From a virus: a stretch of DNA of 64,000 nt. Where the stretch lies: positions 72,768-136,767 of IMG/VR virus record IMGVR_UViG_3300045988_119437; one strand, given 5' to 3'. The notes beneath the pieces are model-generated. The model worked only from the letters and a program-made list of their open reading frames with translations, was not told the origin of the DNA and did not search any database. The position numbers were made by a program, and so were the translations under genes. Positions 17,444 to 42,330 of the stretch are shown here, piece by piece; position 1 is the first letter of the stretch; every line of letters starts with the position of its first letter.

Positions 17444-17472
17444 TTGACTTCTGTAAAGGTATCCTGTATAAT
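17444..17472 (+). promoter_or_regulatory. consensus sigma70-type promoter (TTGACT-17-TATAAT) carrying the GTATCCTGTATAATATAG motif
   Basis: TTGACT at 17444-17449, 17-nt spacer, TATAAT at 17467-17472; near-identical to the promoter at 42167. Confidence 0.6.
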
Positions 17473-17515
17473 ATAGCTATGGAACGGAGCTACACTATTA
17501 TAGAGGAGAAAGACT

Positions 17516-17935
17516 ATGGACAACAATATTGACCCAAAGGTCGGAGAGGTTTGGTTGGTTGATCTATCCAATGCGACAGGTCATCAGCAGCGCGGTATTC
17601 GACCGTTCGTTGTGACGAGTAACAATAAGCGCAACTTCTTCAGTCCCACAATCAAAGGGAATCCGTTGTCTTCCAGAACATACAAGCGTTCTCCGGTTCA
17701 TGTCCTGCTCTCAAAGGAAGATTGCGATTTCCTAGAGGTTGACAGTATCGTTCTCTGTGAAGAGACTGACACACTTAACAAAGGGCAGTTTATCAAAAAG
17801 CTTGGTGTCTTGTCTGAGCGTCATATGAATATGATCGCAATGGCCAGATGCAAGGATGAACCGTTTTTGATCTCGGCGTTCGTGAGCGGCGTACAACATA
17901 CTATGGAATTTCAGAATTTTGCCGCATTTGCTTGA
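17516..17935 (+). CDS. MazF/PemK-family toxin-like endoribonuclease (no cognate antitoxin seen)
   Basis: GEVWLVDLSNATGHQQRGIRPFVVTS matches the PemK/MazF N-terminal beta-strand motif; own promoter and GGAGGAG RBS. Confidence 0.6.
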   Translation: MDNNIDPKVGEVWLVDLSNATGHQQRGIRPFVVTSNNKRNFFSPTIKGNPLSSRTYKRSPVHVLLSKEDCDFLEVDSIVLCEETDTLNKGQFIKKLGVLSERHMNMIAMARCKDEPFLISAFVSGVQHTMEFQNFAAFA

Positions 17936-17988
17936 TTTTTTATAAGGGTTAATGGTACACTACATATAATAAGAAGGAGTGTGCCATT

Positions 17989-18915
17989 ATGCTTACTGAA
18001 GAAAAGATCAACGCTTTTGCTGAAAAGTATTCTGATAGAAGCGGCGAGTTTGTTATATCGACACTTAACCATGTTATGGACTACGAAGCGGAGTGCGGGT
18101 ATGAGTTATTCGACTTCACAAAAGATGATTTTGTAAAGATGTTTGCCAAATACAATTGGGTAAACTCAAGTCGTTCATTCAGAAATGTGAAATCGATAAT
18201 CACTGGTTATATCAAGAACGAAAATCGTACAAGCATGTATGATTTGGCTGAATTCTCAGAGAGCGATGTGAGTTCAGACAATATGTACGAGGACAAGTAT
18301 TTTGCATCGGTTGATGAGTTTGTTGGTTTCTTAAACAAGTATGAAGAAGCGTATCAGATTCGTATGAATGTGATTGCTGTTTTGTACTGGATCGGTCTTA
18401 CTTCTAGTGAGGTTTCTAATCTAACAATTAACGATGTAGACTTTGAATCTCGTACTGTCCTCGATAGGACTGATGTTGACGCAAGGTTGATGGATATCAT
18501 CAAGCAGTGTTATGAAATGAAACAGTATGATGCGCCCAATATGGGAGGATACAGAACATTTTATGTCATAAATGGTGATTACATTCTTCGTAAAACAGAG
18601 GATAGAACTGGTGTAGACAGCGACCCGAAGATGTCTGTAAATACAATCCATAGTTATTTTGTGAGGCTGAATGACATTCTCGAAAAAAGACATCATACAA
18701 AGATTTTAGATCGAAGACATCTGACCAGAAATGGTGAGTATGTGAAGGTCTACGATTACTGTAAGAGTAATTCAGAGTTCAACCTTGCGGAGCTTAGTTT
18801 CGGAAATGGTAAAAAACCTCTTGCAGACATTATTGGAAGAAAGTGTAGCAAGGTAGCTTACATTAGTTTCCGGCAGGGATACAAGGGCTGGGTCGAATAC
18901 TTCCACAAAAATTAA
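17989..18915 (+). CDS. hypothetical protein (308 aa)
   Basis: ORF behind TATAAT box at 17967 and AAGGAG RBS; weak integrase-like segment LYWIGLTSSEV. Confidence 0.55.
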   Translation: MLTEEKINAFAEKYSDRSGEFVISTLNHVMDYEAECGYELFDFTKDDFVKMFAKYNWVNSSRSFRNVKSIITGYIKNENRTSMYDLAEFSESDVSSDNMYEDKYFASVDEFVGFLNKYEEAYQIRMNVIAVLYWIGLTSSEVSNLTINDVDFESRTVLDRTDVDARLMDIIKQCYEMKQYDAPNMGGYRTFYVINGDYILRKTEDRTGVDSDPKMSVNTIHSYFVRLNDILEKRHHTKILDRRHLTRNGEYVKVYDYCKSNSEFNLAELSFGNGKKPLADIIGRKCSKVAYISFRQGYKGWVEYFHKN

Positions 18916-18920
18916 AAACA

Positions 18921-18944
18921 GGGGGCTTCGGCCCCTTGATTTTA
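18921..18944 (+). terminator. rho-independent terminator
   Basis: GGGGC-TTCG-GCCCC hairpin followed by TTGATTTTAAC. Confidence 0.6.
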
Positions 18945-18952
18945 ACATCATA

Positions 18953-18972
18953 ACTATATGACACAGGATACT
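18953..18972 (+). promoter_or_regulatory. conserved motif copy (AACTATATGACACAGGATAC)
   Basis: Reverse-orientation copy of GTATCCTGTRTWATATAG, about 80 nt upstream of gene 19050. Confidence 0.45.
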
Positions 18973-19049
18973 AAACTAAAATAGACATTTTATGAAGAAT
19001 TGGAAATAAATAAATAGCGATAATACGTTGATAAAAAGGAGAGAAAACG

Positions 19050-20276
19050 ATGAGAACTTTGCTTCTTTTCCGTGGAGCACCAGGATGCGGGAAGTCCACC
19101 TATATTAAAGAGCATGATCTGGAAAAGTATACGCTTAGTGCCGATACGATTCGCCTTATGTGTCAGGGTGGTCAGGAAACCCCGGCTGGCACAATGGAAA
19201 TCTCTCCCCAGAACGATGATGTTGTCTGGGATATGCTCTTTAAACTGTTGGAGGTTCGGATGTCTCACGGTGAATTTACCGTGATTGATGCAACGAACTC
19301 TAAAACTGTTGAAATCAATCGCTATAAGAATCTTGCAAAGCAGTACAGATACAGAATGTACATCATCGACATGACTGATTTGCCGATTGATGAGTGTAAA
19401 CGGCGTAATGCGCTTCGTGCTCCTCTGAAGCGAGTTCCAGATGCTGCTATTGATAAGATGTATGCGCGATTTGCTACACAGAAGATTCCGTCTGGTGTGA
19501 CTGTACTTTCGTCAGATATAAATGTCCTTGAGAAATTGAACTATGTTCCGCAGGACTTTAGCAACTGGAACAAAATTCATATCATCGGTGATGTACATGG
19601 ATGTTACAGTTGCTTGAAAGAGTACCTTGGTGACCTGAAGGATGATGAACTGTACATTTTTGTTGGTGATTATCTGGATCGCGGTATTGAGAATGTAGAG
19701 ATGTTCAAGTTCCTTTGTGATGTTGTAGACAATAATCGGAAGAATGTAATTCTCCTTGAAGGAAATCACGAACGGTGGCTGAACAAGTGGGGCCATGATG
19801 AACCGGTTCAGAGCGAGGAGTTCGCAAACTACACTCGTCCGCAGCTTTTCAAAGCAGGGATTGACCATAATACGGCTCGTAAGGTTTATTCGAGAGTAGG
19901 ACAGTGCTCCTATTTTGATTACGACGAGAAAAGATACTTCGTTAGCCATGGTGGTTTGAGTTATTTGCCTGAATTTCTACCATTCGTGTCTACTGACCAG
20001 ATGGTAAAGGGTGTTGGTCGCTATCCTGATATGCTAACCGTGGCTGAGTCTTGGGAAAAATCGATGCCGGATAGCTACATTCAGATATTCGGTCATCGAA
20101 ATGTGCAGGATGTTCCTATTGATATGGGGCATCGGTGCTACAACCTCGAAGGAAAAATCGAGTTTGGTGGATATCTCCGTTGCGTGGAACTTGAACACGG
20201 TCAGTCAATCAAATGTGTAGAAACAAAGAATGATGTGTTCCGAAAAGAGGAGTCAAAGACTGAAACTACCGTTTAA
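19050..20276 (+). CDS. polynucleotide kinase-phosphatase (Pnkp-like: P-loop kinase + calcineurin-type phosphoesterase)
   Basis: N-terminal FRGAPGCGKST Walker A; C-terminal GDVHGC, GDYLDRG, GNHE metallophosphoesterase motifs. Confidence 0.7.
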   Translation: MRTLLLFRGAPGCGKSTYIKEHDLEKYTLSADTIRLMCQGGQETPAGTMEISPQNDDVVWDMLFKLLEVRMSHGEFTVIDATNSKTVEINRYKNLAKQYRYRMYIIDMTDLPIDECKRRNALRAPLKRVPDAAIDKMYARFATQKIPSGVTVLSSDINVLEKLNYVPQDFSNWNKIHIIGDVHGCYSCLKEYLGDLKDDELYIFVGDYLDRGIENVEMFKFLCDVVDNNRKNVILLEGNHERWLNKWGHDEPVQSEEFANYTRPQLFKAGIDHNTARKVYSRVGQCSYFDYDEKRYFVSHGGLSYLPEFLPFVSTDQMVKGVGRYPDMLTVAESWEKSMPDSYIQIFGHRNVQDVPIDMGHRCYNLEGKIEFGGYLRCVELEHGQSIKCVETKNDVFRKEESKTETTV

Positions 20277-21260
20277 ATGAAAACTGAGTTCGATAACGCA
20301 GAACTTGTCAGTAAGATGCGTCAAAGCAAATATGTGTTTGAGAAGCGATTCGGAGATATTTCTTCTTTCAACTTCTCTCGTGAAGCATTTTATAAGAAGC
20401 ACTGGGATGAGGTTTCTACCAAAGCAAGGGGATTGTTCATTAACACAAAGACGAATAAGATTGTAGCTCGAAGCTATGATAAGTTCTTTGCGGTCGATGA
20501 GCGGAATGAAACGAGAATTGGAAACCTACAGAACACTTTGAAGTTCCCGGTGACTGCATATCTGAAGGAAAACGGATTTCTTGGCATTGTCTCGTATGAT
20601 GCAGAACAGGATGGTCTGTTCATTGCAAGTAAATCCACTCCTGAAGGGCCTTTTGCAGATATGTTCCGAAAGATTCTCATGGATACGACTTCTGATGAAG
20701 ACCGTAAGAATCTGAAGGAAGTTGCAAAAGAGAATGGTTCCATCATTTTTGAGGTGATTGATCCTGTAAATGATGCTCATATCATCGAATACAAGAAACC
20801 GCACATTGTTTTGCTGGATATTGTTGCGAATGATATGAACTTCAGTGTGATGGATTACGATGATCTGAAGCGTGCTGCTGAAAAGTGTCATTTGCAGATT
20901 AAGGAGAAGGTTAAAATCTTTGAGAGCTGGAGTGAATTCTATCCTTGGTACGAGGGAGTCATGAACGAGAACTATCTGCATCATGGCTTTGAACATATTG
21001 AAGGGTTTGTCCTTCTGGATAGCACGAACTTTATGTTCAAGCTGAAGCTTCCTTACTACAAACACTGGAAGTTTTTGCGTAGTGTTATGCAGAGCGTTCA
21101 AAAGCGTGGCTATTATGAAAATACCGCAAAGTTGTTTACTGCTGAGGATAACCTGTTCTATGGTTGGATGCGTGAGCAACGAGAGAAAGACCAGGAATCT
21201 TTTTGCAAGAAGGGTATTATTCAGTTACGGAATGAATTCTATGAGAATCGGCACGAATAA
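20277..21260 (+). CDS. ligase-like nucleotidyltransferase (putative RNA ligase partner of Pnkp)
   Basis: Start abuts the Pnkp stop (TAAATG); candidate motifs I KENG, IV EGFVLLD, V FKLKL. Confidence 0.45.
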   Translation: MKTEFDNAELVSKMRQSKYVFEKRFGDISSFNFSREAFYKKHWDEVSTKARGLFINTKTNKIVARSYDKFFAVDERNETRIGNLQNTLKFPVTAYLKENGFLGIVSYDAEQDGLFIASKSTPEGPFADMFRKILMDTTSDEDRKNLKEVAKENGSIIFEVIDPVNDAHIIEYKKPHIVLLDIVANDMNFSVMDYDDLKRAAEKCHLQIKEKVKIFESWSEFYPWYEGVMNENYLHHGFEHIEGFVLLDSTNFMFKLKLPYYKHWKFLRSVMQSVQKRGYYENTAKLFTAEDNLFYGWMREQREKDQESFCKKGIIQLRNEFYENRHE

Positions 21261-21329
21261 CTAAGATATTTTCTTCCTCCGAAAATGCCCTGCGCGGGGC
21301 TGACAGCCGGGAAAGACCGGCAATTATAT

Positions 21330-21419
21330 GCCCAAGTGATGGAATGAGGTAGACATGAAGCTCCCAAACAGCTTTGCGTGAGATATCGCGTGCGGTTTCG
21401 AATACCGCCTTGGGCACCA
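21330..21419 (+). tRNA. tRNA-Leu(CAA), type II, CCA encoded
   Basis: Acceptor GCCCAAG/CTTGGGC, anticodon stem AAGCT/AGCTT, loop CCCAAAC, variable arm, T arm GCGGT-TTCGAAT-ACCGC; C33 unusual. Confidence 0.65.
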
Positions 21420-21459
21420 GAGTCCGAATATTCACCTATTAAATACTGGAGGCAAGTTC

Positions 21460-22356
21460 ATGAAAAGAATTGAAAAATTTTCAAAAGAAGAGATCGAGCA
21501 GATTTTTAAAGAGAGCAACAACTGGGCTACTGTGGCTGAGAAACTTGGTTACAGCAAATTCGGAGGAAGCTCTAGGGATGTAATCCAAACATATGCAGAC
21601 GAAAATAATATTGACACTTCTCATTTTACGGGACAAGGTTAGAATAAAGGTAATATTGATTTGACAAGATTTAAACAGGGCGTTCCATTCAAAGGGTTAA
21701 GAGAATCGCTCTTACTCATAAGAGAACATAAATGTGAATGCTGTGGAAACAAGGAATAGATGGGAAAGGAAATTTCGTTAGAAGTTCATCATATTGATGG
21801 AGATAGGCTGAATAATGAGTTATCAAATCTCAAGCTACTGTGTCCTAATTGTCATTCACAAACAGAAAATTATTGCGGGAGAAATATTAAGAGACATAGA
21901 GCTGTATCCGATGAAGAGTTTGTAAAGGCGCTTAAAACATCGAAGTCTATTGGTGAGGCGTTAGGAAAAGTGGGAATAAATTACATAGCTAAAAGCTGGT
22001 ATGAAAAAGCACGAGAACTTATGCTTGAAAATGAAATCAAGTTCCCGAAGAAAGAAACAATACAAAAAGGAAAGAACGAACGCAAAAAGCGCGAGACAAA
22101 ATCTTGCGCAAAATGTGGGAAAGAATTGAGTCCAAGAACAAAAGGGACACTATGCAAAGAATGTCTTTATAGTCTTCCATACAGAAGATCTAAAGGGTTG
22201 CCAGAAAGAAGTCAGCTTGAAAAAGATATCCGTGTTATGTCATTTTCTAAAGTTGGAGAAAAGTATGGTGTAACAGGAACTTCTATTCGTAAGTGGTGTA
22301 AATACTATGGACTGCCTTATAGAAGATCCGATATAAACAATACTAGCAAAGAATAA
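21460..22356 (+). CDS. HNH homing endonuclease with NUMOD-like repeats, interrupted by two in-frame TAG codons (21640, 21757)
   Basis: Single frame reads ...HFTGQG-TAG-NKGN...HKCECCGNKE-TAG-MGKEISLEVHHIDGD...NLKLLCPNCHS; HNH motif spans the second TAG. Confidence 0.6.
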
Positions 22357-22398
22357 TTTCAAAAGAATGAAGCTGTATTTTATACAGCTTCTGTATAT

Positions 22399-22486
22399 GC
22401 CGCAGTGATGGAGTGACATACATTTCCCGCTTAAACCGGGACGCCTGAAACACGGATCGTGGGTTTGAATCCCACCTGCGGCACCA
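22399..22486 (+). tRNA. tRNA-Leu(TAA), type II, CCA encoded
   Basis: Acceptor GCCGCAG/CTGCGGC, anticodon stem TCCCG/CGGGA, loop CTTAAAC, T arm GTGGG-TTTGAAT-CCCAC. Confidence 0.65.
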
Positions 22487-22489
22487 TAT

Positions 22490-22563
22490 CCAGAATGTAG
22501 TGTAATGGCAGCACGCTGCGTTTGGGACGCAGAAGAGCGATTCGAATTCGACATTTTGGACCA
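22490..22563 (+). tRNA. tRNA-Pro(TGG)-like; weak T stem, possible pseudo-tRNA
   Basis: Acceptor CCAGAAT/ATTTTGG, anticodon stem CTGCG/CGCAG, loop TTTGGGA, T loop TTCGAAT; only 3 bp of T stem pair. Confidence 0.3.
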
Positions 22564-22564
22564 G

Positions 22565-22585
22565 TGGAGTATTCCACTTGCTTTT
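22565..22585 (+). terminator. possible terminator hairpin
   Basis: GTGGA-GTAT-TCCAC followed by TTGCTTTT. Confidence 0.35.
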
Positions 22586-22659
22586 CATGAATACCTTCCT
22601 ATTATTCTTGGCTCTCCAAAAAAAACGGAGCAGTAGGACGCAGCAAGCCAAGTTACATA

Positions 22660-22749
22660 ATGAGGGTTCGCCAAGTGGTAAATGGCATCTGGCTTTGACC
22701 CAGACAGCGTGCTTTATAGCCGATCGTCGGTTCGATCCCGACACCCTCA
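22660..22749 (+). tRNA. tRNA-Gln(TTG)-like with an enlarged 21-nt variable region
   Basis: U1-A72 acceptor TGAGGGT/ACCCTCA, D arm TCGCCAAGTGGTAAATGGCA, anticodon loop CTTTGAC, T arm GTCGG-TTCGATC-CCGAC. Confidence 0.4.
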
Positions 22750-22754
22750 ATTTA

Positions 22755-22844
22755 TGGACACGTGATGGAATCGCAGACATGAAAGATTTAGGCTCTTTTG
22801 CCGTTAACAACGGTGTGCCCGTTCAAATCGGGTCGTGTCCACCA
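22755..22844 (+). tRNA. tRNA-Leu(TAG), type II, CCA encoded
   Basis: Acceptor GGACACG/CGTGTCC, anticodon stem AAAGA/TCTTT, loop TTTAGGC, variable hairpin CCGTT-AAC-AACGG, T arm CCCG-TTCAAAT-CGGG. Confidence 0.65.
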
Positions 22845-22947
22845 TTATCAACTTATGGTTGCGTACCGTTTGTTGATCTCCTTTGACCACTATTATTCCC
22901 AGCTCGCCAGTGATGGTGCAGTAGTGTTTTGTAAGCTGGGTTTTCAT

Positions 22948-23022
22948 GCGGCGGTCGTACAACGGCTAGTACATCAGCCTTCCAAGCTGAGGATGAGGTT
23001 TCGACTACCTTTCGCTGCTCCA
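22948..23022 (+). tRNA. tRNA-Gly(TCC), CCA encoded
   Basis: Acceptor GCGGCGG/TCGCTGC (two G-U pairs), D stem GTAC/GTAC, anticodon stem TCAGC/GCTGA, loop CTTCCAA, T arm GAGGT-TTCGACT-ACCTT. Confidence 0.65.
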
Positions 23023-23174
23023 ATCTCGTATGGGTAGGATCTTTGGCGGTCAGATCTGGCCGCGCCTGTGCGAGATACCACCCCGAAAGGGGCGAGATAT
23101 AGGAAATGTGCATCGCTGTTATTCCTTCCTCGTCTATATGATATAGATGCAATAGTGTTTTATAAGGAAGGTGC

Positions 23175-23210
23175 CCAGTTGAATAGTTGCAGCTATTTAA
23201 CTGGTTTTTA
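23175..23210 (+). terminator. rho-independent terminator-like hairpin ahead of tRNA-Met
   Basis: CCAGTT...AACTGG stem followed by TTTTTA. Confidence 0.45.
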
Positions 23211-23211
23211 T

Positions 23212-23292
23212 GGGACATTATCTCAATTGGTTAGAGAACTCAGCTCATAACTGAGCATATGTATCACGGTTCAAGTCCGACATGTCCCACCA
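23212..23292 (+). tRNA. tRNA-Met/Ile2(CAT)-like, CCA encoded
   Basis: Acceptor GGGACAT/ATGTCCC, D stem TCTC/GAGA, anticodon stem CTCAG/CTGAG, loop CTCATAA; T stem only 3 bp. Confidence 0.5.
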
Positions 23293-23396
23293 GCCCGAAA
23301 GGGCGTACATAAAACCCGCTAGAACTTTTGTTTTATAAGCGAATGAATAATATGACGTTGATACGTCTATTATTTTTCGCTCATTTTTAAAGTTTT

Positions 23397-23416
23397 AGCT
23401 ATATAATACAGGATAC
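23397..23416 (+). promoter_or_regulatory. conserved motif copy (AGCTATATAATACAGGATAC) immediately upstream of the MTase RBS
   Basis: Near-exact reverse complement of the 17455 and 42182 motif; contains a TATAAT box. Confidence 0.5.
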
Positions 23417-23419
23417 TAA

Positions 23420-25003
23420 AAGGAGGAATGGGAACTGAAACATTACGGAGATATCACACAACTCCATGGTGACCAGATTGAACCTGTTGATTGTATCACT
23501 GGAGGTTCGCCCTGCCAAGACCTTTCAATTGCCGGTAAAAGAGCCGGTCTCGCAGGCGGTCGATCTGGTCTGTTTATGGAAATGATTCGTGTGATTCGAG
23601 AGATGAGGGAGGCAACGAATGGAGAATACCCAAAGTTCGTTATCTGGGAGAATGTTAGAGGAGCATTTAGCTCAAACAAAGGAGAAGACTTCCGATGTGT
23701 TTTGGAAGAATTTTCTCACCTTGCAGAGCCAGAAGTTTCAATTCCTCGACCTTCTGGAAAAGACGGAAAATGGTCAAAATCTGGCGCAATTTCCGGTAAT
23801 GGATGGTCTATCGCATGGCGATTGTTCGATGCTCAATACTGGGGAGTGCCCCAGCGTCGCCAAAGAATCGCGCTTGTCATGGATCTTGGAGGACAACGTG
23901 CCGCAGAAATATTATTTGAGCGCACGGGCGTGTCAGGGAATCCTGAACAGAGCATCCCGGCGTGGAAAGCCATTGCCAGATCTCCTGAAAAATGCACTTC
24001 TGGAAATGATCGAATGGTGGGAGAAGATTCCTTCTGCATCGCAGGACACGTTGCAGACCGAGATGTGAGTCAAAATGGTTTAGGTGTCACAAAGGATAAA
24101 TCATATACGCTCGATACCGTTGACAAACATTGTGTCGCCTACACTTTAAAGATTCGTTCCGGTTGCGAGGGTGGTGGAAAGGGTGCTCTGGTACAGACCG
24201 AAAAGAGCGCAACGCTATCCACACTACAGGATCAAACACTAATTTGTTTGGCAGAAAACACCTCTTTACATAATTTAAAACAAAAGATTTCCTCGGCGGT
24301 ATTCGAGAGTCACAGTCAAGACGCTCGATATACCCAGCAAGGAAATACAAGCCCGTCTTGTACAGCCCAGTGGGGAACTGGTGGTAATAATATGCCACTG
24401 GTCGCTGAAAAGAAAGCTTTTGCGATGCAGCGTATTGGAGAGTATAAGGAAAGTGAACAAGCAAGTGCAATGAAATCTCGTGATTACAAAGATGCAACTG
24501 ATCTTGTGATTGAGAAAAAAGACGTAAATTGTGCTGGGTTTCCTCTTGGTTTTAGACCGGAAAACACTCGTTGTTATGATGAATGTGCGACTACACTTTG
24601 TAATGGCACAAGACCAGGATGGACAACCGGGTGTGTTCTCAATTGGATTGTTCGTCGTTTGACTCCTGTTGAATGCGAACGGCTACAGGGTTTCCCTGAC
24701 GGATGGACTGATATTGGGGAATGGACTGATGAGAATGGGAAGAAGCATAAACCCGCTGATTCTCCTCGGTATAAGGCTCTCGGTAATTCGATTGCACTTC
24801 CTCAGTGGTTCTGGATTGCACAGAAAATGAAACCCTATCTTGGCGACGGTGCTACGCTTGGCAGTTTGTTTGATGGAATCTCCGGGTTCCCTTTGGTATG
24901 GACTGAGAGTTATGGCGAAGATACAGCACGTTGGAGCTCTGAGGTTGAACCCTATTGCATTGCTGTGGCAAAATATCATTTCCCAGAAAAAGAAATCTCA
25001 TAA
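23420..25003 (+). CDS. DNA (cytosine-5)-methyltransferase with rearranged motif order (IV-VI-VIII-TRD-IX-X then I)
   Basis: PCQDLS (IV), ENV (VI), QRRQR (VIII), GNSIALP (X); MKPYLGDGATLGSLFDGISGF...YHFPEKEIS at the C-terminus looks like a canonical N-terminus with motif I; no in-frame ATG before 23576. Confidence 0.65.
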   Translation, partial: KEEWELKHYGDITQLHGDQIEPVDCITGGSPCQDLSIAGKRAGLAGGRSGLFMEMIRVIREMREATNGEYPKFVIWENVRGAFSSNKGEDFRCVLEEFSHLAEPEVSIPRPSGKDGKWSKSGAISGNGWSIAWRLFDAQYWGVPQRRQRIALVMDLGGQRAAEILFERTGVSGNPEQSIPAWKAIARSPEKCTSGNDRMVGEDSFCIAGHVADRDVSQNGLGVTKDKSYTLDTVDKHCVAYTLKIRSGCEGGGKGALVQTEKSATLSTLQDQTLICLAENTSLHNLKQKISSAVFESHSQDARYTQQGNTSPSCTAQWGTGGNNMPLVAEKKAFAMQRIGEYKESEQASAMKSRDYKDATDLVIEKKDVNCAGFPLGFRPENTRCYDECATTLCNGTRPGWTTGCVLNWIVRRLTPVECERLQGFPDGWTDIGEWTDENGKKHKPADSPRYKALGNSIALPQWFWIAQKMKPYLGDGATLGSLFDGISGFPLVWTESYGEDTARWSSEVEPYCIAVAKYHFPEKEIS

Positions 25004-25031
25004 AAGGCTAATTCAAGTAAGAGGTGACACA

Positions 25032-25238
25032 ATGAACAGAAAAATTCCTATCAATGTAACCATTGCTTCCGGTTCCTTGAGCCTTCCGGCGAGTCCAATT
25101 TTCCAGAAGGAAAAGAACACATATCTCTGTCCGTTTTGTGTGACGAAGCTGGAAAAGCTTGAGCTGAAGTGCCCAGAGTGTCATCACAAGATGGATTGGA
25201 GTAGGTTTACTGAAAAGAAGGAGGAGATGTTTAGTTGA
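25032..25238 (+). CDS. zinc-ribbon small protein
   Basis: CPFC...CPEC motifs; AAGAGGTGACACA RBS. Confidence 0.5.
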   Translation: MNRKIPINVTIASGSLSLPASPIFQKEKNTYLCPFCVTKLEKLELKCPECHHKMDWSRFTEKKEEMFS

Positions 25239-25513
25239 ATATAGATTTCTTCCAACGGCGTAAGACTCAGCTTGAGGATACACTTCTTTTGAAAAATCAG
25301 GCAGTCGATATGCTTGATTATCTAAAGACGCACCGTATCAACAACGACCAGTATTGTGCCATTCGAGATTACATTGAAGAAGCTGCGAAGATTCTGGAGA
25401 GTGACCTCGAATATGTAAACAACAAATTGCAGTCCGCATTCAGACCTAAGTATGGTCGGAACAACAGACTGACTCGTGCTCAATCTAAAATGTTCCGTGA
25501 TAGAGAATATTAA
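25235..25513 (+). CDS. hypothetical protein
   Basis: Start codon overlaps the previous gene stop. Confidence 0.5.
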   Translation: MNIDFFQRRKTQLEDTLLLKNQAVDMLDYLKTHRINNDQYCAIRDYIEEAAKILESDLEYVNNKLQSAFRPKYGRNNRLTRAQSKMFRDREY

Positions 25514-25530
25514 AAATGGGGTGATGCCGT

Positions 25531-26993: not shown

Positions 26994-27004
26994 TTTTTAG
27001 TCTT

Positions 27005-27024
27005 AGCTAAGTAATACAGGATAC
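27005..27024 (+). promoter_or_regulatory. conserved motif copy (TAGCTAAGTAATACAGGATAC)
   Basis: Reverse-orientation copy directly upstream of the RBS of gene 27039. Confidence 0.45.
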
Positions 27025-27038: not shown

Positions 27039-27332
27039 ATGCAAAATACTCTTGAATATACTGCCTATAATGGCATGAAGTTTTACATTGTTTATATTGA
27101 GACGCTTGAAAAAGAGCCAGAAGAAGATTCTCCCATGATGTCTATTTTGTTTACTACGCATCCTGAGATTATTGAAGAAGCTATAGCTTATGCGGAATGT
27201 AATGATAATGCTATTCCGGTAGGGTGTAAGGATATTCTGGCTGATAGTGTGGATAGCATTACCCGCCAGTTGGATTATATTGCTCATGCAGTTGAGACTG
27301 GTGATCCATGGTATGAGTGTTTGAAAGTTTAA
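27039..27332 (+). CDS. hypothetical protein
   Basis: ORF with AGAGAGGG RBS. Confidence 0.5.
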   Translation: MQNTLEYTAYNGMKFYIVYIETLEKEPEEDSPMMSILFTTHPEIIEEAIAYAECNDNAIPVGCKDILADSVDSITRQLDYIAHAVETGDPWYECLKV

Positions 27333-34155: not shown

Positions 34156-34158
34156 AAA

Positions 34159-34407: not shown

Positions 34408-34416
34408 GGTGAGTAT

Positions 34417-35178: not shown

Positions 35179-35502
35179 AGATAGAAATAAAGGTCTGCGA
35201 GTCCTTGATTATATCGACGAGAATGAAATTTTAGCGCAGTTGTCAGAAGAGGCTTCTGAAGTTGCAAAGGCGGCATTAAAGCTTCGCCGGGCTCGTGATA
35301 GAAAAGAACCCTACACCAGTAAGTATTCGTGAAGCGTGGGCTGATTTGAATGAAGAATATGGCGATGTACTCAATTGCCTATATGCGTTGTTTGATGACG
35401 ACGATGACCGTATTTATGATTTTTTTTGAACACGCAAATATTACTGCCGATGAAAAGCGCAAGCGTTGGATTAAGCGCCTGAAGGAACGTAATCAGTTTT
35501 AA
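35171..35502 (+). CDS. hypothetical protein, apparently frameshifted twice at homopolymers (A4 at 35302, T8 at 35420)
   Basis: Three consecutive protein-like frames; removing one base from each homopolymer gives one ~108-aa ORF. Confidence 0.3.
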
Positions 35503-35519
35503 TGGTGGAAGGAGAATAG

Positions 35520-38500
35520 ATGTCAGATAATTTTGTAAATCTTCATGTACATACAGCGCAGGGTTCGTTACTTGACTCTATTCTTACCGTCAAGGAACTT
35601 GTAAACTTTGCCAAAGAAAATGGCCAGAAAGCAATCGCGGTTACAGACCACGGAAAAATGCACTCTTTTGTTGACCAAGTTAAGGCTTGCAAGGAAGCAG
35701 GTATTAAGCCTATCATCGGCTGTGAAGTCTATGAAGTAGATAATCAGGCAGAGAAAGCCGATACAAAAGACTATAAACAACCTCGTTACCATCTTGTTTT
35801 ACTAGCAAAGAACGAGACCGGTTTAAAAAATCTATTTAAGATTGTTTCAAATGCTTGCGTTGATGGTATGTATAAAAAGCCTCGAACTTCTTTGAACATT
35901 ATTGAACAGAACGAGTGGGGTAAAGGTATCATCTGTCTTACAGCCTGTCAAGTTGGTCGAATGAGTAGATTACTTGTTGATGGCAACGAGACTGAAGCAT
36001 GGCAGTTATGGAACAAACTGGAATGGATCTTTGATGACGTGTTTATGGAAGTACAGTCACATGATACGCCAGATCAAGCTGAGGCCAATGCAAAAATTGC
36101 GGCGTTTATTAGGAAATACGACTTGCCGTATACCATTACGACCGATGCTCACATGCTTTCTAAAGAAGATATTGATGCACACTCTGTCTTTGTTGAGATT
36201 GGAGAAGGCCGAGAAGTTGGTGAAAGCTACGTTGACTGCTATCTTCAGACTGAAAACGATGTTTTGAGAACGCTATCAAAGCAGTTTGATGAGGACTTTA
36301 TCAAAAAAGGCTGTGAGATGTCTGTGAAAATCGCAGACATGATTGATGATATCGATATCGGTCTTGGACAGCCGAACCAGATGCCAGAAGTGAAAATTGA
36401 GGGAAAATTTGATTCTCATTTTGATTATCTTCGGCACCTTGTATATGCCACTTTTAATAAAAAATTCGGGTGGATGAGTGAAGTGGAACAGCAAACCCGG
36501 CGGAATCGTATTGAGATGGAACTGGATGTTTTGAAGTATGTTGATTATATTGACTATTTCATTATGCTGTATATGCTTTGCAAAAAGGCTGATGAACGCA
36601 AAATTCCTCGTGGGTACTCTCGTGGTTCTGGCGCAAATTGTCTTTGCCTTTTTATGGAGAATGTTACTCAGATTGACTCTGTTCGTTGGGATCTTGACTT
36701 CTCTCGCTTTGCAAACAAAGGTAGAAAGAGCCTGGCCGACTTCGACTTCGATGTCTCTAAACGTCGTCGAAAGGAACTTATTGCTATTGCAGAAGAACTT
36801 TTCGGCAAAGAAAATGTTGCTCCTATCGCTACGTTTAACTCTTTGTCTACAAAAGTTGCCATCAAAGATATTGGCAAAGTTCTGAACGAAGACCCAGAAA
36901 GCCCGTATTATATGCAGATTCCGTATGAATTACGTAATGAGGTCGCCAAGTTAATTCCGACTGTAAAAACGCTGGATGATCTTGGCGAAGAAGTTGAAAA
37001 GGAAGTTCTACTAAAGGATATCCTCGGAAAGAGTGAACAGCTTTCTAATGTATATGACAAGTTTCCTCTATGGTTCAAATACGTTATGCGTCTTGAGGGT
37101 CTGCCTAAGAGTATGGGTCGCCATGCTGCCGGTACATTGATTACGCCCAAGCCTGTCATTGAATATTGTCCTCTTTGTATGGACAGAGAAGGCAATCAGA
37201 TGTGCCAACTTGAGATGCACAATGCCATGGATGATTTGTCGCTGGTCAAGATGGACTTCCTTGGTCTTGAGAATCTGGACATTATTGACGATACGTTAAA
37301 GATGGCTGGATTAACATGGGAAGATGTCGATATCAACCATCTTGATCTAAGTGATAAGGCTGTCTATGATACCGTCTACAAGTCGGGCAACACAATTGGC
37401 ATTTTCCAGATGGAATCTGCAGAAGCACGAAAGATGTGTGTTGAAGCAAAGTGCGATAATGCTGAGGATATCATTGTTGTGAACGCAGCGAATCGTCCTG
37501 GTACTAAGGACAGCTTCCCGACGTATTGCTCCAATAAACTTCATCCAGAGACTATCAAACTACTCCATCCTGACATCAAACAGCTTTTTGCTAAGACGCA
37601 ATACATTCTTCTTTATCAGGAACAGGCACTAGCGGTATTCCGCTATGCAGGATTCCCTGAAACTGAGGTTGACAATGCTCGTCGTGCTATCGGCAAGAAA
37701 AAGAAAGATGTTATGGCATCCTTGGAAGTTCAGTTCCGAGATGGTCTTCACAAGAAAGGATGGAATGATTACCAGATTTCTGAGATGTGGGCACTAATCT
37801 TGAAGCAGGCTTCTTATTCCTTTAATAGAGGCCACGCAGTTGCGTATGGACTTCTTTCTTACCTGACGGCTTACCTGAAAACTCATTATACTGAGTATTT
37901 CATGGCTGCGTGTATGATTACCAAGGAAGACGATTCTGGCAAAATGGGTGTGTTTATCAACGAATGCGACCGTCTACATATTCGTGTCCTTCCTCCAAGT
38001 GTCAACAAGTCTGATATGGAATTTAAGGCTGATGCGGAAAAGCACACAATCCTGTTTGGTTTGAAAGCCATTAAGGGAATGGGTGAGAGTGTCGCTTCAG
38101 GAGTGATTGCAGACCGTCCATATTCTGGACTGGCAGACTTTGTTCAGAGAGCAAACGGTGGTAAGATTGGAACCTCAAATGTTGTCAAGTTGATTAAGGC
38201 TGGCGCTATCCCGACAAAGGATAAGAAAAAAATCTTAATCACTTTTGCAAATATGGTTTTTGAGAATGAGTATAAAGAGAAAGGATTCCATGAGATGGCG
38301 TCTCTCCCTAAGATTTCCATTCTTAAAGACGAATACGGCATTGATACGGACTCTGTTAAAGACAAACCAACCAGACTTGCCTTATATAATAAGGTAAGAA
38401 GGGAGCGCTGGGAAGCGGGCACATGGAATCGAAAGAAAGAAAAAGACAAAAAGCGGAATGCATTTATGCAGGCGTTTGCTGAAAAGTATATGCAAGACGA

Positions 38501-38864
38501 GCACATGTGGGAATTTGAAACTCTTTCAATGTTTTTGACTAGCAATCCCATTAAGGATGCTTGCACCTATATTGATGCTGGTCTTGATACTGTAGAGGAT
38601 GGCGGTAAGGCAACTGCTATTTGTGTCATCGTAGATATCCAAAAAAAGAAGGATAAACGTGGCAACCAGTTTGCGTACTTACATGTTTACACGACAGGTG
38701 GTATTGTCGAAATGATTTGTTGGGCATCTCAGTATGCACGATATTCAAGTCTGATTTCAAAGGGTAACGATCTTGCAATCCTTTGCAAGAGAAAAGAAAA
38801 TTCGTACATTGTTGAGAAGATGAAGCCTTATAAGCAGTGGCTGCATGATAGAGAGATAGCGTAA
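35520..38864 (+). CDS. DNA polymerase III alpha subunit (PHP + polymerase core)
   Basis: PHP motif NLHVHTAQGSLLDS, catalytic LADFDFDV, 1114 aa. Confidence 0.85.
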   Translation: MSDNFVNLHVHTAQGSLLDSILTVKELVNFAKENGQKAIAVTDHGKMHSFVDQVKACKEAGIKPIIGCEVYEVDNQAEKADTKDYKQPRYHLVLLAKNETGLKNLFKIVSNACVDGMYKKPRTSLNIIEQNEWGKGIICLTACQVGRMSRLLVDGNETEAWQLWNKLEWIFDDVFMEVQSHDTPDQAEANAKIAAFIRKYDLPYTITTDAHMLSKEDIDAHSVFVEIGEGREVGESYVDCYLQTENDVLRTLSKQFDEDFIKKGCEMSVKIADMIDDIDIGLGQPNQMPEVKIEGKFDSHFDYLRHLVYATFNKKFGWMSEVEQQTRRNRIEMELDVLKYVDYIDYFIMLYMLCKKADERKIPRGYSRGSGANCLCLFMENVTQIDSVRWDLDFSRFANKGRKSLADFDFDVSKRRRKELIAIAEELFGKENVAPIATFNSLSTKVAIKDIGKVLNEDPESPYYMQIPYELRNEVAKLIPTVKTLDDLGEEVEKEVLLKDILGKSEQLSNVYDKFPLWFKYVMRLEGLPKSMGRHAAGTLITPKPVIEYCPLCMDREGNQMCQLEMHNAMDDLSLVKMDFLGLENLDIIDDTLKMAGLTWEDVDINHLDLSDKAVYDTVYKSGNTIGIFQMESAEARKMCVEAKCDNAEDIIVVNAANRPGTKDSFPTYCSNKLHPETIKLLHPDIKQLFAKTQYILLYQEQALAVFRYAGFPETEVDNARRAIGKKKKDVMASLEVQFRDGLHKKGWNDYQISEMWALILKQASYSFNRGHAVAYGLLSYLTAYLKTHYTEYFMAACMITKEDDSGKMGVFINECDRLHIRVLPPSVNKSDMEFKADAEKHTILFGLKAIKGMGESVASGVIADRPYSGLADFVQRANGGKIGTSNVVKLIKAGAIPTKDKKKILITFANMVFENEYKEKGFHEMASLPKISILKDEYGIDTDSVKDKPTRLALYNKVRRERWEAGTWNRKKEKDKKRNAFMQAFAEKYMQDEHMWEFETLSMFLTSNPIKDACTYIDAGLDTVEDGGKATAICVIVDIQKKKDKRGNQFAYLHVYTTGGIVEMICWASQYARYSSLISKGNDLAILCKRKENSYIVEKMKPYKQWLHDREIA

Positions 38865-38876
38865 GAGGGTTATAAA

Positions 38877-41800
38877 GTGGCAGATAAAAAATTCAATGAA
38901 AATATGATCCGTTGCTACATCAGGATAAAACGAGTCTTTTATCCGAAAGATGGGAGGGAGGTGGAGCCCGGCGGCTTCGCCACTTTCTCTGCCGAGGTGG
39001 TAAAAGTCAAGCAGGGAAATCCTGTTATGAGTCGATACAGTGACCTCCGGTTAAAGGGCAACGTTCCTAGCCTCGATATGAATAAAACTTATTCGTTCTG
39101 TGGTGAGTATGTTCATCATGAAAAGTTTGGTGACCAGTATAAAATCATTTATATGAATGAGTTTCAAGAGATTACTGACCCGGAAGAACAGAAAAGCTTT
39201 CTCCATTATATCCTGACCGACCATCAGTTTGAGATACTTTATGAAGCATTCGAAAATCCGTATGAGATTATCAAGAATGGTGATATCAAGTCGCTTTGCA
39301 CTGTTAGTGGTATTACGGAAGGCAGAGCTCAAAAGATCATTGATACTTATGAAAACAACATTGATAACAGTGATGCGTACACAAAGCTAATTGAGTACGG
39401 TCTGACCCCTAGTGCTATTGAAAAGCTTGTCCGTCAATATCATGGTGCAGACACTCTGGTGAGAAAGATTGAAGAGAATCCTTACGTCCTGATTGACGAT
39501 GTGTATGGCATCGGCTGGAAGAAGGCTGACGCTCTAGCTCTGAATATGGGGTTGAAACACAATTCGCAATTTAGAATTGAAGCTTACGTCATGCACTTTC
39601 TTGCTGGCCGTGCCGAAGAAGGCAACTCTATCATCTCGGCAAACCAGACAATCAATAGCTGTATTAAGGAACTTGATTTGAATGAGGGTGACCAAGAAGT
39701 CATCAAAAGGGCACTTTTCCATTTGCATGATGCTCGTGAAACGCTTTGGTGGAGCGATGACCGTCAGGAATTTGCTTTAACTAGAGTGTGGAATCTGGAA
39801 GATAGTATTGCGAAGGAAATCAAGCGTCTGGCGGATGTTCCTGTTGAGCCGATTGGTCGAAATATGGATGCAGCAATCAATGAGGCCGAGGATGAACTTG
39901 GTATCGAGTACACTGAAGAGCAGAGAGATGCTATTAAAAAGGTATGCTCTAGCAACGTCTGTATCTTAACAGGTTACGGCGGATGCCTTGATGCAGAGAT
40001 GGAGTTCTTTAATGGTATCCAATGGAAAAAAATAAAAGATTATGTTAAGGGCGACAAAGTTCTTCAATATAATGAAAATGGGACTACAACGCTTGTTGAG
40101 CCTGAGAAATATGTAAAATTTAAATGTGAATATCTATATCACATGAAAAACAAGTCGGGCAGTATCAATCAACTATTGAGTGCAGAGCATAATGTTGTTT
40201 ACTTGACCAGCAAAAACAATTTAGCTAAAATCCCAATGTGGGAGTTGTATCAAAGAAATGTTAAACGAAAGTCTGGGTTTAACGGACATTTTATAACAAC
40301 GTTCAATTATGATGGTCCAGGAATCGATTTGAGCGATGCTGATATTAGACTAATGTGTGCTGTTATTTGCGATGGGTCGTTTTTGAAGGATCATAAATCA
40401 GCTTGGTGTAGAGTAAACGTAAAAAAAGAGCGAAAGAAACTTCGCATGAGAAGACTTCTTTTGGAAAGTGGTAGATACTTTGATGAGCATCAGTGGAATC
40501 CAAAAGACTTGGAATATTCGAACTTTGTCTTTTATGCTCCAAGAAAAGAAAAAAGATTTACTTCGTATTGGTATAGCTGTAATCATCATCAGCTAGAGGT
40601 GATTTGCGATGAGATTCTAAATTGGGACGGTCACGTAAAAGAGGGGAGACGGAAAGATTTTAGTACACTGATTAAAGAAACGGCAGATTTTGTTCAGTTC
40701 GCATTTTCTTCTTGTGGTTATCGTTCTGTTGTACATGAATCAAATATTGAACGGCACGGTAGAATGGTCACAGAGTATAATGTTCATATTGTGCAACACT
40801 CGAATGGAAAAGTTTCTCTTATGACAAAAGGCAGTAAAAGCGATATTGATATTGTTCGTTCAAGCGATGGATATAAGTATTGTTTTACGGTTCCGTCTCA
40901 TATGTTTCTGATAAGATATAATGGAAGAATTTGTGTCACAGGCAACACCGGTAAAAGTACCGTTGTCGCTGGTGTTCTAAAGGTCCTTCACGGTAAGTCT
41001 TTCGCTCAGACTGCACTCTCTGGACGTGCCGCAGCTCGTATGCAGGAGATTACTGGTCAGGACGGGAAGACCATTCATCGTCTTCTTGGTTATGATATTG
41101 AGAATGGTGGTTTCATTCATAACAAGGACAATCCTCTTGAAGAAGATATTATCATTCTGGATGAGACATCTATGGTTGGAGCTCAGTTGTTCTATGACTT
41201 GATTCAGGCAATCGAGACCGGAAAGCGATTCATCATGATTGGTGATGACGGACAGCTTGAGAGCATCGGTATGTGTAACATTTTCAAGGATATGCTTGCA
41301 TCTAAGGTTGTTCCTGTGGCTCGGTTGACTAAGATCCATCGTCAGGCAGCTAAGTCTGCAATTATCACGGAGAGCATCAAGGTTCGCAATGCTACGCAAT
41401 TGGTGCCTTATGGCTGGGCTGGTAGTGAGATTCGTGGTGAACTTCGTGATTTGGAGCTTGATATCTATAAAGATGCAAGTGAGTCATTCAATCACATCAT
41501 CAATCAGTACCGTACCTTATATAATAAGGTAGGGAATGATAGTGCGAAGATTCAGATTGTACTTCCACAGAAGCTGCGTGGTAGTATCTGTACTTATGAA
41601 GTCAATAATGCTATTCAGGAAATTGTGAATCCGAGTCGTGGTCAAGCAGAAGCAAAGGTCACAATCTATGGTGATGGCAAGGATAGAGTGTATACTCTGC
41701 GTGAGGGCGATCAAGTCATTATCAACAAGAACAATTATGAACTTCACACATACAATCTCAAGACAAAGAAAAAGGAAGAGAAGTGTCCGGTGTTCAACGG

Positions 41801-42170
41801 AAACCGTGGCATTATCCGAAAGATTGAGACTAGTTTTATTCTGGTTGATTTTGACCAATGGGGAACGATCTTCATTCCGCATTACTTTGGTGGGAATAAC
41901 ATCTGGGCAACGCTTGAACTTGCTTATGCTTTAAGTTGTCATAAACTACAGGGCAGTGAGGCTCCGTATGTGATTGTTGGTATGGACAACTCTGCATACC
42001 TGATGCTGACGAGAGAATGGCTCTATACGGCCATTACTCGTGCCAAGAAGTATTGTGTGATTTGCGCCGAAACTCATGCTCTTGATCGGGCTGTAAAGAC
42101 TTCGAGGGTGCCATACAAGCGGACGTTCTTGAAGGAATTTTTACGGAAAGAATTTTCAGAAAAGCATTGA
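38877..42170 (+). CDS. RecD2-like SF1 DNA helicase with HhH N-domain; Walker A interrupted by an intein
   Basis: GTG start; GIGWKKADALA HhH; ILTGYGG|intein|TGKSTVV rebuilds GxxGxGKST; C-terminal helicase motifs. Confidence 0.75.
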   Translation: MADKKFNENMIRCYIRIKRVFYPKDGREVEPGGFATFSAEVVKVKQGNPVMSRYSDLRLKGNVPSLDMNKTYSFCGEYVHHEKFGDQYKIIYMNEFQEITDPEEQKSFLHYILTDHQFEILYEAFENPYEIIKNGDIKSLCTVSGITEGRAQKIIDTYENNIDNSDAYTKLIEYGLTPSAIEKLVRQYHGADTLVRKIEENPYVLIDDVYGIGWKKADALALNMGLKHNSQFRIEAYVMHFLAGRAEEGNSIISANQTINSCIKELDLNEGDQEVIKRALFHLHDARETLWWSDDRQEFALTRVWNLEDSIAKEIKRLADVPVEPIGRNMDAAINEAEDELGIEYTEEQRDAIKKVCSSNVCILTGYGGCLDAEMEFFNGIQWKKIKDYVKGDKVLQYNENGTTTLVEPEKYVKFKCEYLYHMKNKSGSINQLLSAEHNVVYLTSKNNLAKIPMWELYQRNVKRKSGFNGHFITTFNYDGPGIDLSDADIRLMCAVICDGSFLKDHKSAWCRVNVKKERKKLRMRRLLLESGRYFDEHQWNPKDLEYSNFVFYAPRKEKRFTSYWYSCNHHQLEVICDEILNWDGHVKEGRRKDFSTLIKETADFVQFAFSSCGYRSVVHESNIERHGRMVTEYNVHIVQHSNGKVSLMTKGSKSDIDIVRSSDGYKYCFTVPSHMFLIRYNGRICVTGNTGKSTVVAGVLKVLHGKSFAQTALSGRAAARMQEITGQDGKTIHRLLGYDIENGGFIHNKDNPLEEDIIILDETSMVGAQLFYDLIQAIETGKRFIMIGDDGQLESIGMCNIFKDMLASKVVPVARLTKIHRQAAKSAIITESIKVRNATQLVPYGWAGSEIRGELRDLELDIYKDASESFNHIINQYRTLYNKVGNDSAKIQIVLPQKLRGSICTYEVNNAIQEIVNPSRGQAEAKVTIYGDGKDRVYTLREGDQVIINKNNYELHTYNLKTKKKEEKCPVFNGNRGIIRKIETSFILVDFDQWGTIFIPHYFGGNNIWATLELAYALSCHKLQGSEAPYVIVGMDNSAYLMLTREWLYTAITRAKKYCVICAETHALDRAVKTSRVPYKRTFLKEFLRKEFSEKH
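39984..40946 (+). mobile_element. intein (321 aa) with LAGLIDADG-type homing endonuclease core
   Basis: Starts with Cys after GYGG, block B SAEHN, LMCAVICDGSF LAGLIDADG-like motif, ends ...VTGN followed by T. Confidence 0.65.
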
Positions 42171-42195
42171 CAATTATATTCGTATCCTGTATAAT
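42167..42195 (+). promoter_or_regulatory. perfect-consensus sigma70 promoter (TTGACA-17-TATAAT) carrying the GTATCCTGTATAATATAG motif
   Basis: TTGACA 42167-42172 overlaps the helicase stop; TATAAT 42190-42195. Confidence 0.6.
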
Positions 42196-42201
42196 ATAGT
42201 T

Positions 42202-42304
42202 ATAAAAAGTCTCCATCCCGTAGGCTTAAAATTCTCTCTTTAGATGCATAACACAGGATACGAGAAAGAGAAGGCTTGCTCGTAACGACAAGCCTTTCTT
42301 TATT
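42202..42304 (+). ncRNA. candidate ~100-nt small RNA between consensus promoter and terminator
   Basis: Lies between the promoter at 42167 and the terminator hairpin at 42271; no credible ORF or RBS; contains an ACAGGATAC motif copy. Confidence 0.3.
42271..42304 (+). terminator. rho-independent terminator
   Basis: AAGGCTTG-loop-CAAGCCTT stem followed by TCTTTATT. Confidence 0.6.
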
Positions 42305-42330
42305 AGCTATAACTATATAACACAGGATAC
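42305..42330 (+). promoter_or_regulatory. conserved motif copy (AGCTATAACTATATAACACAGGATAC) upstream of the ligase RBS
   Basis: Reverse-orientation motif copy; an additional core copy sits at 42253-42261. Confidence 0.45.

Follow-up and report, generated by a model that had tools for sequence, protein, structure and literature searches.

A conserved 22-bp intergenic element as the probable operator of a recombinase-fold repressor in an uncultured SPbeta-like gut phage

The DNA described here, a stretch of 64,000 nucleotides from the IMG/VR virus record IMGVR_UViG_3300045988_119437 (positions 72,768 to 136,767; hereafter the window), carries a 22-bp element, GTATCCTGTRTWATATAGYTAT, in several intergenic regions, and at 17989-18915 a gene whose 308-amino-acid product is probably the repressor acting on it. 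The 9-nt core of the element, GTATCCTGT, was found exactly seven times when both strands were counted, whereas dinucleotide-preserving shuffles of the window held 0.26 copies on average and never more than two. The 5' ends of the cores on the matched strand are at 17459+, 18971-, 23416-, 27024-, 42182+, 42261- and 42330-. The full 22-mer was recognised with 0-3 mismatches in six of the seven copies (0.00 expected); the copy at 42240-42261 has only the core and GTTAT in the window, and its full form is present in relatives. A first-pass annotation of the same DNA had listed seven copies in both orientations, and this count agreed with ours, with coordinates that have to be shifted by 2-4 nt (17455 becomes 17459, and 42305 becomes 42309). 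It had also been considered that the motif might be equally frequent in coding DNA. This was not so: all seven copies, spread over 25 kb, are intergenic and lie within the 8.0% of the window outside + strand open reading frames (ORFs) and tRNA genes.

The copies, numbered O1 to O7, and the features next to them are listed below; copies on the + strand are called forward and those on the - strand flipped.

17444-17472, + strand: sigma-A promoter TTGACT-17-TATAAT of the mazF-like/repressor operon, 11/12 consensus positions
17459-17480, + strand: candidate operator copy O1, forward, 0 mismatches; the arrangement is TTGACT-N9-GTATCCTG-TATAAT-ATAGCTAT
17516-17935, + strand: PemK/MazF-like gene, first gene of the operon (Pfam PemK_toxin, E 4.5e-19)
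17989-18915, + strand: MrpR/YopR/SroF-like candidate repressor gene, 308 amino acids, from profile and fold evidence
18920-18936, + strand: terminator hairpin after the repressor gene, with a GC-rich stem and a T-run, both strands having been scored
18950-18971, - strand: candidate operator copy O2, flipped, 1 mismatch, between the terminator and pnkp (ATG at 19050)
23395-23416, - strand: candidate operator copy O3, flipped, 1 mismatch, adjoining the ribosome-binding site (RBS) of the C5-methyltransferase gene
27003-27024, - strand: candidate operator copy O4, flipped, 3 mismatches with an exact core, 14 nt before the ATG at 27039
42167-42195, + strand: perfect sigma-A promoter TTGACA-17-TATAAT, 12/12 consensus positions
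42182-42203, + strand: candidate operator copy O5, forward, 0 mismatches, inside the 42167 promoter
42240-42261, - strand: candidate operator copy O6, flipped, partly degenerate, spanning 80 bp together with O5
42271-42304, + strand: terminator-like hairpin and T-tract in the leader, AAGGCTTGctcgtaacgaCAAGCCTTtctttatt, the stem being present in the centroid fold
42309-42330, - strand: candidate operator copy O7, flipped, 0 mismatches, adjoining the RBS of the ATP-dependent DNA ligase gene (ATG at 42344)

The 22-mer has an 8 + 6 + 8 layout, namely GTATCCTG, a TATAAT-like central hexamer (TRTWAT) and ATAGYTAT; no internal dyad was seen in it when the sequence was read by eye. In the forward copies a -35 box stands exactly 9 nt upstream of the motif, so the motif fills the promoter-proximal part of the spacer, gives the -10 box and covers the start region. 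The earlier statement that forward copies supply the -10 boxes of consensus promoters with 17-nt spacers was thus correct, and the promoters at 17444 and 42167 turned out to be the two best + strand intergenic matches of the sigma70 type in the whole window. The 17444 promoter was kept in 18 distinct relative sequences. Two more intergenic promoters of the sigma-A type, 17028-17055 (TTGGCT-16-TATAAT) and 63853-63881 (TTGAAA-17-TATAAT), have the extended -10 context TATAATATA in common with the motif-bearing promoters but do not have the GTATCCTG core, and they are candidates for promoters that escape control by the repressor.

Seen on the gene strand, the sequence of the five flipped copies is WTARCTATATAAYACAGGATAC. 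Each stops 1-80 nt short of an RBS or ATG, the genes concerned being pnkp, the C5-methyltransferase gene, orf 27039 and the DNA ligase gene, in agreement with the few to about 80 nt given in the first-pass annotation. A -35 box and a TG extension are both absent from them, the last base of the hexamer is often C or A, and a promoter scan of the window gave no + strand promoter-like site at these copies or up to about 150 nt upstream of them. For these reasons the flipped copies are unlikely to be promoters themselves, and this part of the first-pass annotation was not supported. Readings of the motif by eye as a sigma-H, sigma-54 or T7-like promoter were also rejected, as the downstream spacing or the partner boxes were lacking or transcription would lead away from the genes. 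O2 was kept in 23 distinct relative sequences, and the DNA downstream of it was variable.

Three copies are clustered in front of the gene at 42344, which was identified as a ligase gene by its Pfam domains. The promoter at 42167 is followed there by the second copy of the cluster, then by the hairpin and T-tract at 42271-42304, and finally by the third copy against the ligase RBS, so the previously noted association of the cluster with a terminator was borne out. O5 and O6 form a forward-reverse pair, and similar pairs were found in two relatives (here and below, handles beginning with L denote loci of relatives):

42182-42261 of the window: forward-reverse pair
L001, 353-433: forward-reverse pair
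L002, 336-415: forward-reverse pair

These pairs occur in three non-homologous contexts, span 79-82 bp and have 36-38 bp between the arms. The sequences of their interiors are unrelated; a TGgTATAAT extended -10 promoter is located in one of them and a small hairpin in each of the other two. The ligase leader (42203-42345) also includes a small hairpin, and the 5' arm of this hairpin, AAGUCUCC, could also pair with the Shine-Dalgarno sequence of the ligase gene, GGAGGCUU. As a whole the leader folded better than its shuffles (z -2.65), and attenuation or control of translation may be its function.

The protein encoded at 17989-18915 gave a sub-threshold match to the Pfam family MrpR_N_CB (E 2.8e-4). 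Its homologue P0066, which is 79% identical, scored above the curated cut-off of this family, and PF22823 (MrpR_C_cat) was precomputed in nearly all close homologues. When the single sequence was searched against the PDB, only the integrase (Int) of Tn1549 was found (E 0.01). A family profile was then made from 36 members, remote homologues included, collected by an exhaustive HMMER search; against the PDB it matched YopR/MrpR over the full length with an E-value of 2.4e-11, and the best active recombinase, XerA, with 1.2e-3. Alignment with SPbeta YopR by hhalign gave a probability of 97.5% and an E-value of 4.9e-12. In addition, the structure was predicted with AlphaFold2 (mean predicted local distance difference test score, pLDDT, 90.6) and compared with the PDB using Foldseek. 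The top seven matches were to phi3T SroF with DNA (template modelling score, TM, 0.67), SroF with Sar, YopR and MrpR, with E-values of 1e-7 to 1e-6, while lambda Int (1e-3) and Cre were weaker by 3-4 orders of magnitude. The identity to the SPbeta repressor is about 14-17% and is visible by profile or fold comparison only. Two catalytic positions, Arg-I and the tyrosine, were compared: Arg-I is replaced by Thr (GLTSSE here, GLRISE in Tn1549 Int and GLAHSE in YopR) and the C-terminal tyrosine is kept as Y298, equivalent to Y304 in MrpR. From these comparisons the 17989-18915 product is assigned to the MrpR/YopR/SroF family, to which it is closer than to active recombinases. A Bro-N/Ant-like gene is located at 7567-8868; none of the tests marked it as a homologue of Sar, at which no search was aimed.

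A PemK/MazF-like gene stands directly before the repressor gene in four lineages (window, 17516-18915; L118, 8679-10084; L119, 9507-10987; L121, 9506-11008). The repressors of the MazF-paired lineages are 30-75% identical to that of the window, and no antitoxin gene was evident. The pairing of the two genes may be functional.

The remaining gene content showed what kind of phage the window comes from. Besides the PemK/MazF-like gene there are genes for polynucleotide kinase-phosphatase, RNA ligase, an HNH endonuclease and a C5-methyltransferase; for an AAA_24 ATPase, a DnaB-like helicase, primase, RecJ, the DNA polymerase III alpha subunit (PolIII-alpha) and RecD2; and for an ATP-dependent ligase, NrdD, thymidylate synthase, dUTPase, seven tRNAs and a Tn916-type integrase. 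The order AAA_24, a 229-amino-acid protein, DnaB, primase, RecJ and PolIII-alpha is that of SPbeta yorG-yorL, and the YorF and YorH Pfam domains were found at the corresponding places in the distant relatives L119 and L121. Relatives also encode a 930-amino-acid protein with a Pfam RdRP match (E 9e-15), which gave an E-value of 2e-25 in a BLASTP comparison with YonO of SPbeta, an RNA polymerase of the single-subunit, two-barrel type. The Tn916-type integrase (62535-63701, 388 amino acids) has an N-terminal Integrase_DNA domain and an intact Phage_integrase domain; it is likely the prophage integrase, and from its presence the phage would be temperate. Because of the replication synteny, the YonO-like polymerase of the relatives and the integrase, we assign the window, on the strength of its sequence, to a temperate phage that is SPbeta-like and belongs to an uncultured gut lineage. 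A search of a cultured-phage collection with the DNA gave no close relative, and the nearest cultured phage by PolIII-alpha was Clostridium phage Amboise (47%). The 308-amino-acid repressor was not found in the GTDB representative genomes, from which the lineage is absent.

Several other features of this genome were seen. The seven tRNA genes (21330-23292, + strand) are specific for Leu (three), Pro, Gln, Gly and Met; the HNH endonuclease gene (21760-22356) is inserted between the first and the second of them, and the cluster is followed by a hairpin and then by the copy at 23395. In L118 a Cas12f/TnpB-like gene (12936-14225) lies between the RNA ligase and methyltransferase genes, in the place occupied by the tRNA cluster in the window. 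To the left of the window, L010 has the YonO-like gene at 1340-4132 on the - strand, with a DFDGD motif, and about 1.8 kb of ORF-poor DNA (7140-8970) to the right of a divergent pair of copies. This ORF-poor stretch is reminiscent of the unannotated region for non-coding RNA that precedes yonK in SPbeta. An Rfam scan of the window and L010 gave tRNAs only.

To see how the element is distributed, IMG/VR was scanned for exact matches to an 18-mer pattern, which gave more than 113 loci, nearly all of them gut phage contigs of 70-140 kb. The copies of the relatives stand at the same genomic positions as those of the window, and clustering gave about 12 site types per genome. The site types comprise the seven sites of the window and the following, to the left of it:

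About 2 kb left of the window, relatives: promoter-hairpin-operator unit
About 9 kb left of the window, relatives: divergent operator pair
L010, 4163, relatives: operator copy directly upstream of the 930-amino-acid YonO-like gene

The RBS-proximal copies have one orientation relative to their own gene, and this was seen in both arms of the divergent region. In bacterial genomes (596 Gb, GTDB representatives) there were 27 single hits, none of them related to the window; we estimate that this is about the chance level.

Of 97 loci of relatives, 95 were collinear with the window, which argues that the copies are not in use as inversion sites. In the other two, L011 (4894-5875) and L025 (1713-2695), a 973-bp segment corresponding to 23314-24286 is inverted. 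It contains one motif copy and about 290 codons from the 5' part of the C5-methyltransferase ORF, and its edges consist of an inverted repeat other than the motif, CTAGAACTTTTGTTTTATA; O3 stays with the 5' end of the methyltransferase gene despite the inversion. As the inversion splits this gene, it may act as an on/off switch of the methyltransferase. The tyrosine recombinase gene at 9976-10845 (289 amino acids, intact Phage_integrase domain), which adjoins a DnaD-like loader gene, could encode the enzyme that drives the inversion. The methyltransferase frame is open from 23420 and its first in-frame ATG is at 23576; a strong RBS, AAGGAGG (23421-23427), is followed by an out-of-frame ATG at 23428 and an in-frame CTG at 23435. 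The N-terminal AdoMet-binding motif I (AdoMet, S-adenosylmethionine) may be absent from the protein.

We also looked at the more distant relatives L119 and L121, whose repressors are 30-32% identical to the window protein. Both keep the order of the mazF-like gene, the MrpR-like gene and then pnkp or YorF, and GTATCCTGT was absent from both loci. In L119 a TCTAYTAACAAARG-like core was found three times, in the spacer of the operon promoter (flipped), right before the pnkp RBS and before YorF. These are the positions of three copies in the window, and the copy in the promoter spacer again has the orientation opposite to that of the RBS-proximal ones. In L121, cores related to this one are present in the promoter spacer of the repressor operon and twice after the repressor gene. 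The repeated core thus appears to change together with the repressor lineage; this co-variation is only suggestive, because the sites are few and were found by eye. Generic repeat finding in L119 gave noise only. For a third lineage, represented by homologue P0080 (37% identity), the contig is only 1.3 kb long and therefore silent on the operator.

These observations can be compared with a system described in Bacillus. The master repressor of SPbeta, known as MrpR, YopR or SroF, has the fold of a tyrosine recombinase without recombinase activity (PMC10516654). It binds SPBRE, a long asymmetric repeat present at about ten SPbeta early promoters, among them its own and those of the yonP-yonO and replication operons (PMC10516654; Lazarevic 1999 as cited there), and experiments have identified SPBRE as a site of repressor action (PMC10516654). 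In phage phi3T a SroF monomer nearly encircles an asymmetric 26-bp box, of which it reads 24 bp, and its sites are placed in distant parts of the genome (bioRxiv 10.1101/2025.11.27.690993). In the SPbeta sequence, which we read for this purpose, SPBRE at yonP occupies the spacer of a sigma-A-like promoter and extends into its -10 box (TAGACA-AATACAAATAATATGTA-TATAAT). The yorE and yorZ sites have the same layout, as do those of yosX and yorM, whose -10 boxes are weaker; at yonX, yopM and yopV, SPBRE lies downstream of the promoter and adjoins the RBS, and at aimR it is situated just upstream of the -35 box. O4 is located at the head of the yorE-yorL-like replication module of the window, and SPbeta yorE likewise carries SPBRE.

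It therefore seems probable that the 22-bp element is the operator of a recombinase-fold master lysogeny repressor and the counterpart of SPBRE, the repressor being the product of 17989-18915. The genome context and the repressor gene had been missed in the first-pass annotation, and they offer an explanation of the motif. By analogy with phi3T SroF, a repressor monomer would wrap around each 22-mer, and such binding to a long asymmetric site would explain the length of about 22 bp, the asymmetry and the use in either orientation. At the forward copies the bound repressor would cover the spacer, the -10 box and the start site and so exclude RNA polymerase from the sigma-A promoters. At 17444 this would mean negative autoregulation through the promoter of its own operon, and at 42167 the repressor would silence the promoter of the ligase/nucleotide-metabolism leader. 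At the flipped copies, which follow terminators or gene ends, we infer that the DNA-encircling protein acts as a roadblock or insulator that keeps read-through out of the lytic modules. The clearest case would be the copy right behind the repressor operon, an operon that has to remain expressed in the lysogen. The 308-amino-acid protein and the 22-mer are a concrete pair for testing, for which GTATGGAGT was designed as a core-mutant version of GTATCCTGT, and the sites provide a map of the early regulon, including the YonO-like polymerase gene.

Several points weigh against this interpretation. BLASTP detected no similarity between the 308-amino-acid protein and SPbeta YopR (E 1.8), so that its family membership rests on the profile and fold evidence. 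The candidate operator GTATCCTGTRTWATATAGYTAT is unrelated to SPBRE (...ACAAATACAAATAATATGTATA), and its RBS-proximal copies are flipped, whereas in SPbeta every SPBRE copy is oriented the same way with respect to its gene. Nor is there any relation to the box of phi3T, which is rich in A-tracts (CAGTAATTTTATTTTTATTCTTAATG), whereas the motif here has a core containing G+C. The cores of L119 and L121 were located by eye in intergenic sequences, at three sites per locus, and the search pattern was derived from the same sites. Furthermore, the scan did not find promoters for pnkp, the C5-methyltransferase gene and orf 27039, so a function different from that of a roadblock is conceivable for the flipped copies. 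Finally, the constant 79-82 bp span of the pairs is not predicted by a simple monomer model.

In a further reading, the element would be a bifunctional unit that sets direction. The flipped copies without a -35 box would then also be start sites, either for the YonO-like polymerase or for host polymerase recruited by a recombinase-fold activator, and the 80-bp pairs would be two-repressor switches between a host-type and a phage-type promoter. We regard this as doubtful.

Unlikely, too, is the explanation that the motif is a phage-specific promoter, of a YonO-like single-subunit polymerase or of host polymerase with a phage factor, in the direction ...ATAGCTATATAAYACAGGATAC toward the gene. 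The relatives do encode a YonO homologue, and the promoter sequence of YonO is undefined (PMC5467207). The orientation of the flipped copies is tied to the downstream gene and stayed so in the local inversion, these copies have no -35 box or nearby host-type promoter, and about 22 bp with a central TATA-like block resembles the promoters of single polymerases. However, in SPbeta the transcription by YonO is confined to the late structural and lysis operon and begins at a single site (PMC5467207), whereas all sites found here are at early or replication genes, none of them near structural genes in 113 loci, and one copy stands before the gene of the polymerase. As promoters of this kind, the forward copies would be directed against their genes, yet they sit at a fixed register in perfect sigma-A promoters, and the analogous SPbeta repeat is experimentally a repressor site (PMC10516654). 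The first-pass annotation had left two possibilities, a shared regulator-binding site and a phage-specific promoter class. The evidence supports the former, with the MrpR/SroF-like protein as the candidate regulator; the latter is unlikely because the motif is found at early and middle genes and before the phage RNA polymerase gene, not at late genes.

A role at the RNA level appears very unlikely. The pairs could form a 22-bp duplex for processing of the RNase III type, or the copies could be sites in 5' untranslated regions (5'-UTRs) for a translational regulator or antiterminator. The constant spacing of 36-38 nt in three contexts, the flipped copies beside the RBS in 5'-UTRs and the better-than-shuffled folding of the ligase leader would fit such a role. 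On the other hand, three of the seven copies (18950, 23395 and 27003) have no nearby partner, the forward copies are mostly upstream of the start of their own promoter and hence outside its transcript, and there was no Rfam match. Moreover, an RNA element cannot explain why a reverse-complement copy is conserved in a promoter spacer at a fixed register.

It is a shade less probable again that the copies are sites of a tyrosine recombinase and that inverted pairs of them flank invertons or larger gene blocks. There are three recombinase-fold genes in the window (9976-10845, 17989-18915 and 62535-63701), both orientations of the motif are present, and a real inversion was found among relatives. 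In addition, a promoter-bearing 36-bp segment in relatives and the 1.5-kb mazF/recombinase-like segment 17459-18971 each lie between inverted copies. However, the sole inversion is the one at 23314-24286, which is bounded by CTAGAACTTTTGTTTTATA, and the other loci are collinear. The 22-mer does not have two arms around a crossover region of 6-8 bp, arms 36 bp apart are too near for inversion, and the 308-amino-acid protein is without the catalytic Arg-I and groups with the non-recombining MrpR/SroF proteins. The ends of a miniature mobile element, with solo ends elsewhere, can hardly be considered: the pairs span 80 bp with 22-bp inverted ends, and the ends are promoter-like as in the Correia elements of Neisseria, but the internal 36-38 bp differ wholly among the three pair types, the positions are fixed and orthologous across more than 100 contigs, and the bacterial hits are few, single and unrelated to the window.

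Compared with known systems, the element shares with promoters of phage RNA polymerases (the 23-bp T7 type, and the YonO promoter) a conserved length of about 22 bp, an upstream position locked in orientation and a TATA-rich sequence. Unlike them, it is found at early and middle genes and at a polymerase gene, and some copies point against the genes and lie on host consensus promoters. As with lambda CI and Cro at PR and PL, the site extends over the spacer and -10 box of strong early promoters, and the repressor would control its own gene. In lambda, however, the sites are 17-bp dyads at two loci bound by helix-turn-helix dimers, whereas here they are asymmetric and spread over more than 50 kb, with a candidate repressor of the recombinase fold. 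The phi3T complexes SroF-DNA and SroF-Sar (PDB 9rd5 and 9rgl) are the best structural match of the predicted protein.

The closest parallel is to SPbeta. Both phages have a recombinase-fold repressor, or a candidate for one, of about 310-325 amino acids encoded by the last gene of its own operon, and in both a long asymmetric element is present in about 10-12 copies at distant intergenic sites, either in the spacer and -10 box of sigma-A-type promoters or adjoining an RBS. The apparent targets also agree, namely the repressor operon (yopM-yopR in SPbeta), the head of the replication module (yorE) and the YonO polymerase operon (yonP-yonO), and both phages are temperate, as predicted here, of roughly 130 kb and with matching gene order. 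They differ in the inverted pairs with a fixed 80-bp span, found here, and in the partner in the operon, which is a MazF-like toxin gene here and yopM-Q in SPbeta. An integrase-fold repressor with dispersed long operators has so far been characterised experimentally only in Bacillus phages of the SPbeta family, and our results suggest the same switch in abundant uncultured human-gut phages of about 130 kb, with a different operator and with repressor-operator pairs specific for each lineage. The reversal of orientation and the fixed 80-bp pairing, which have not been described for SPbeta, could reveal how a monomeric repressor acts away from promoters.

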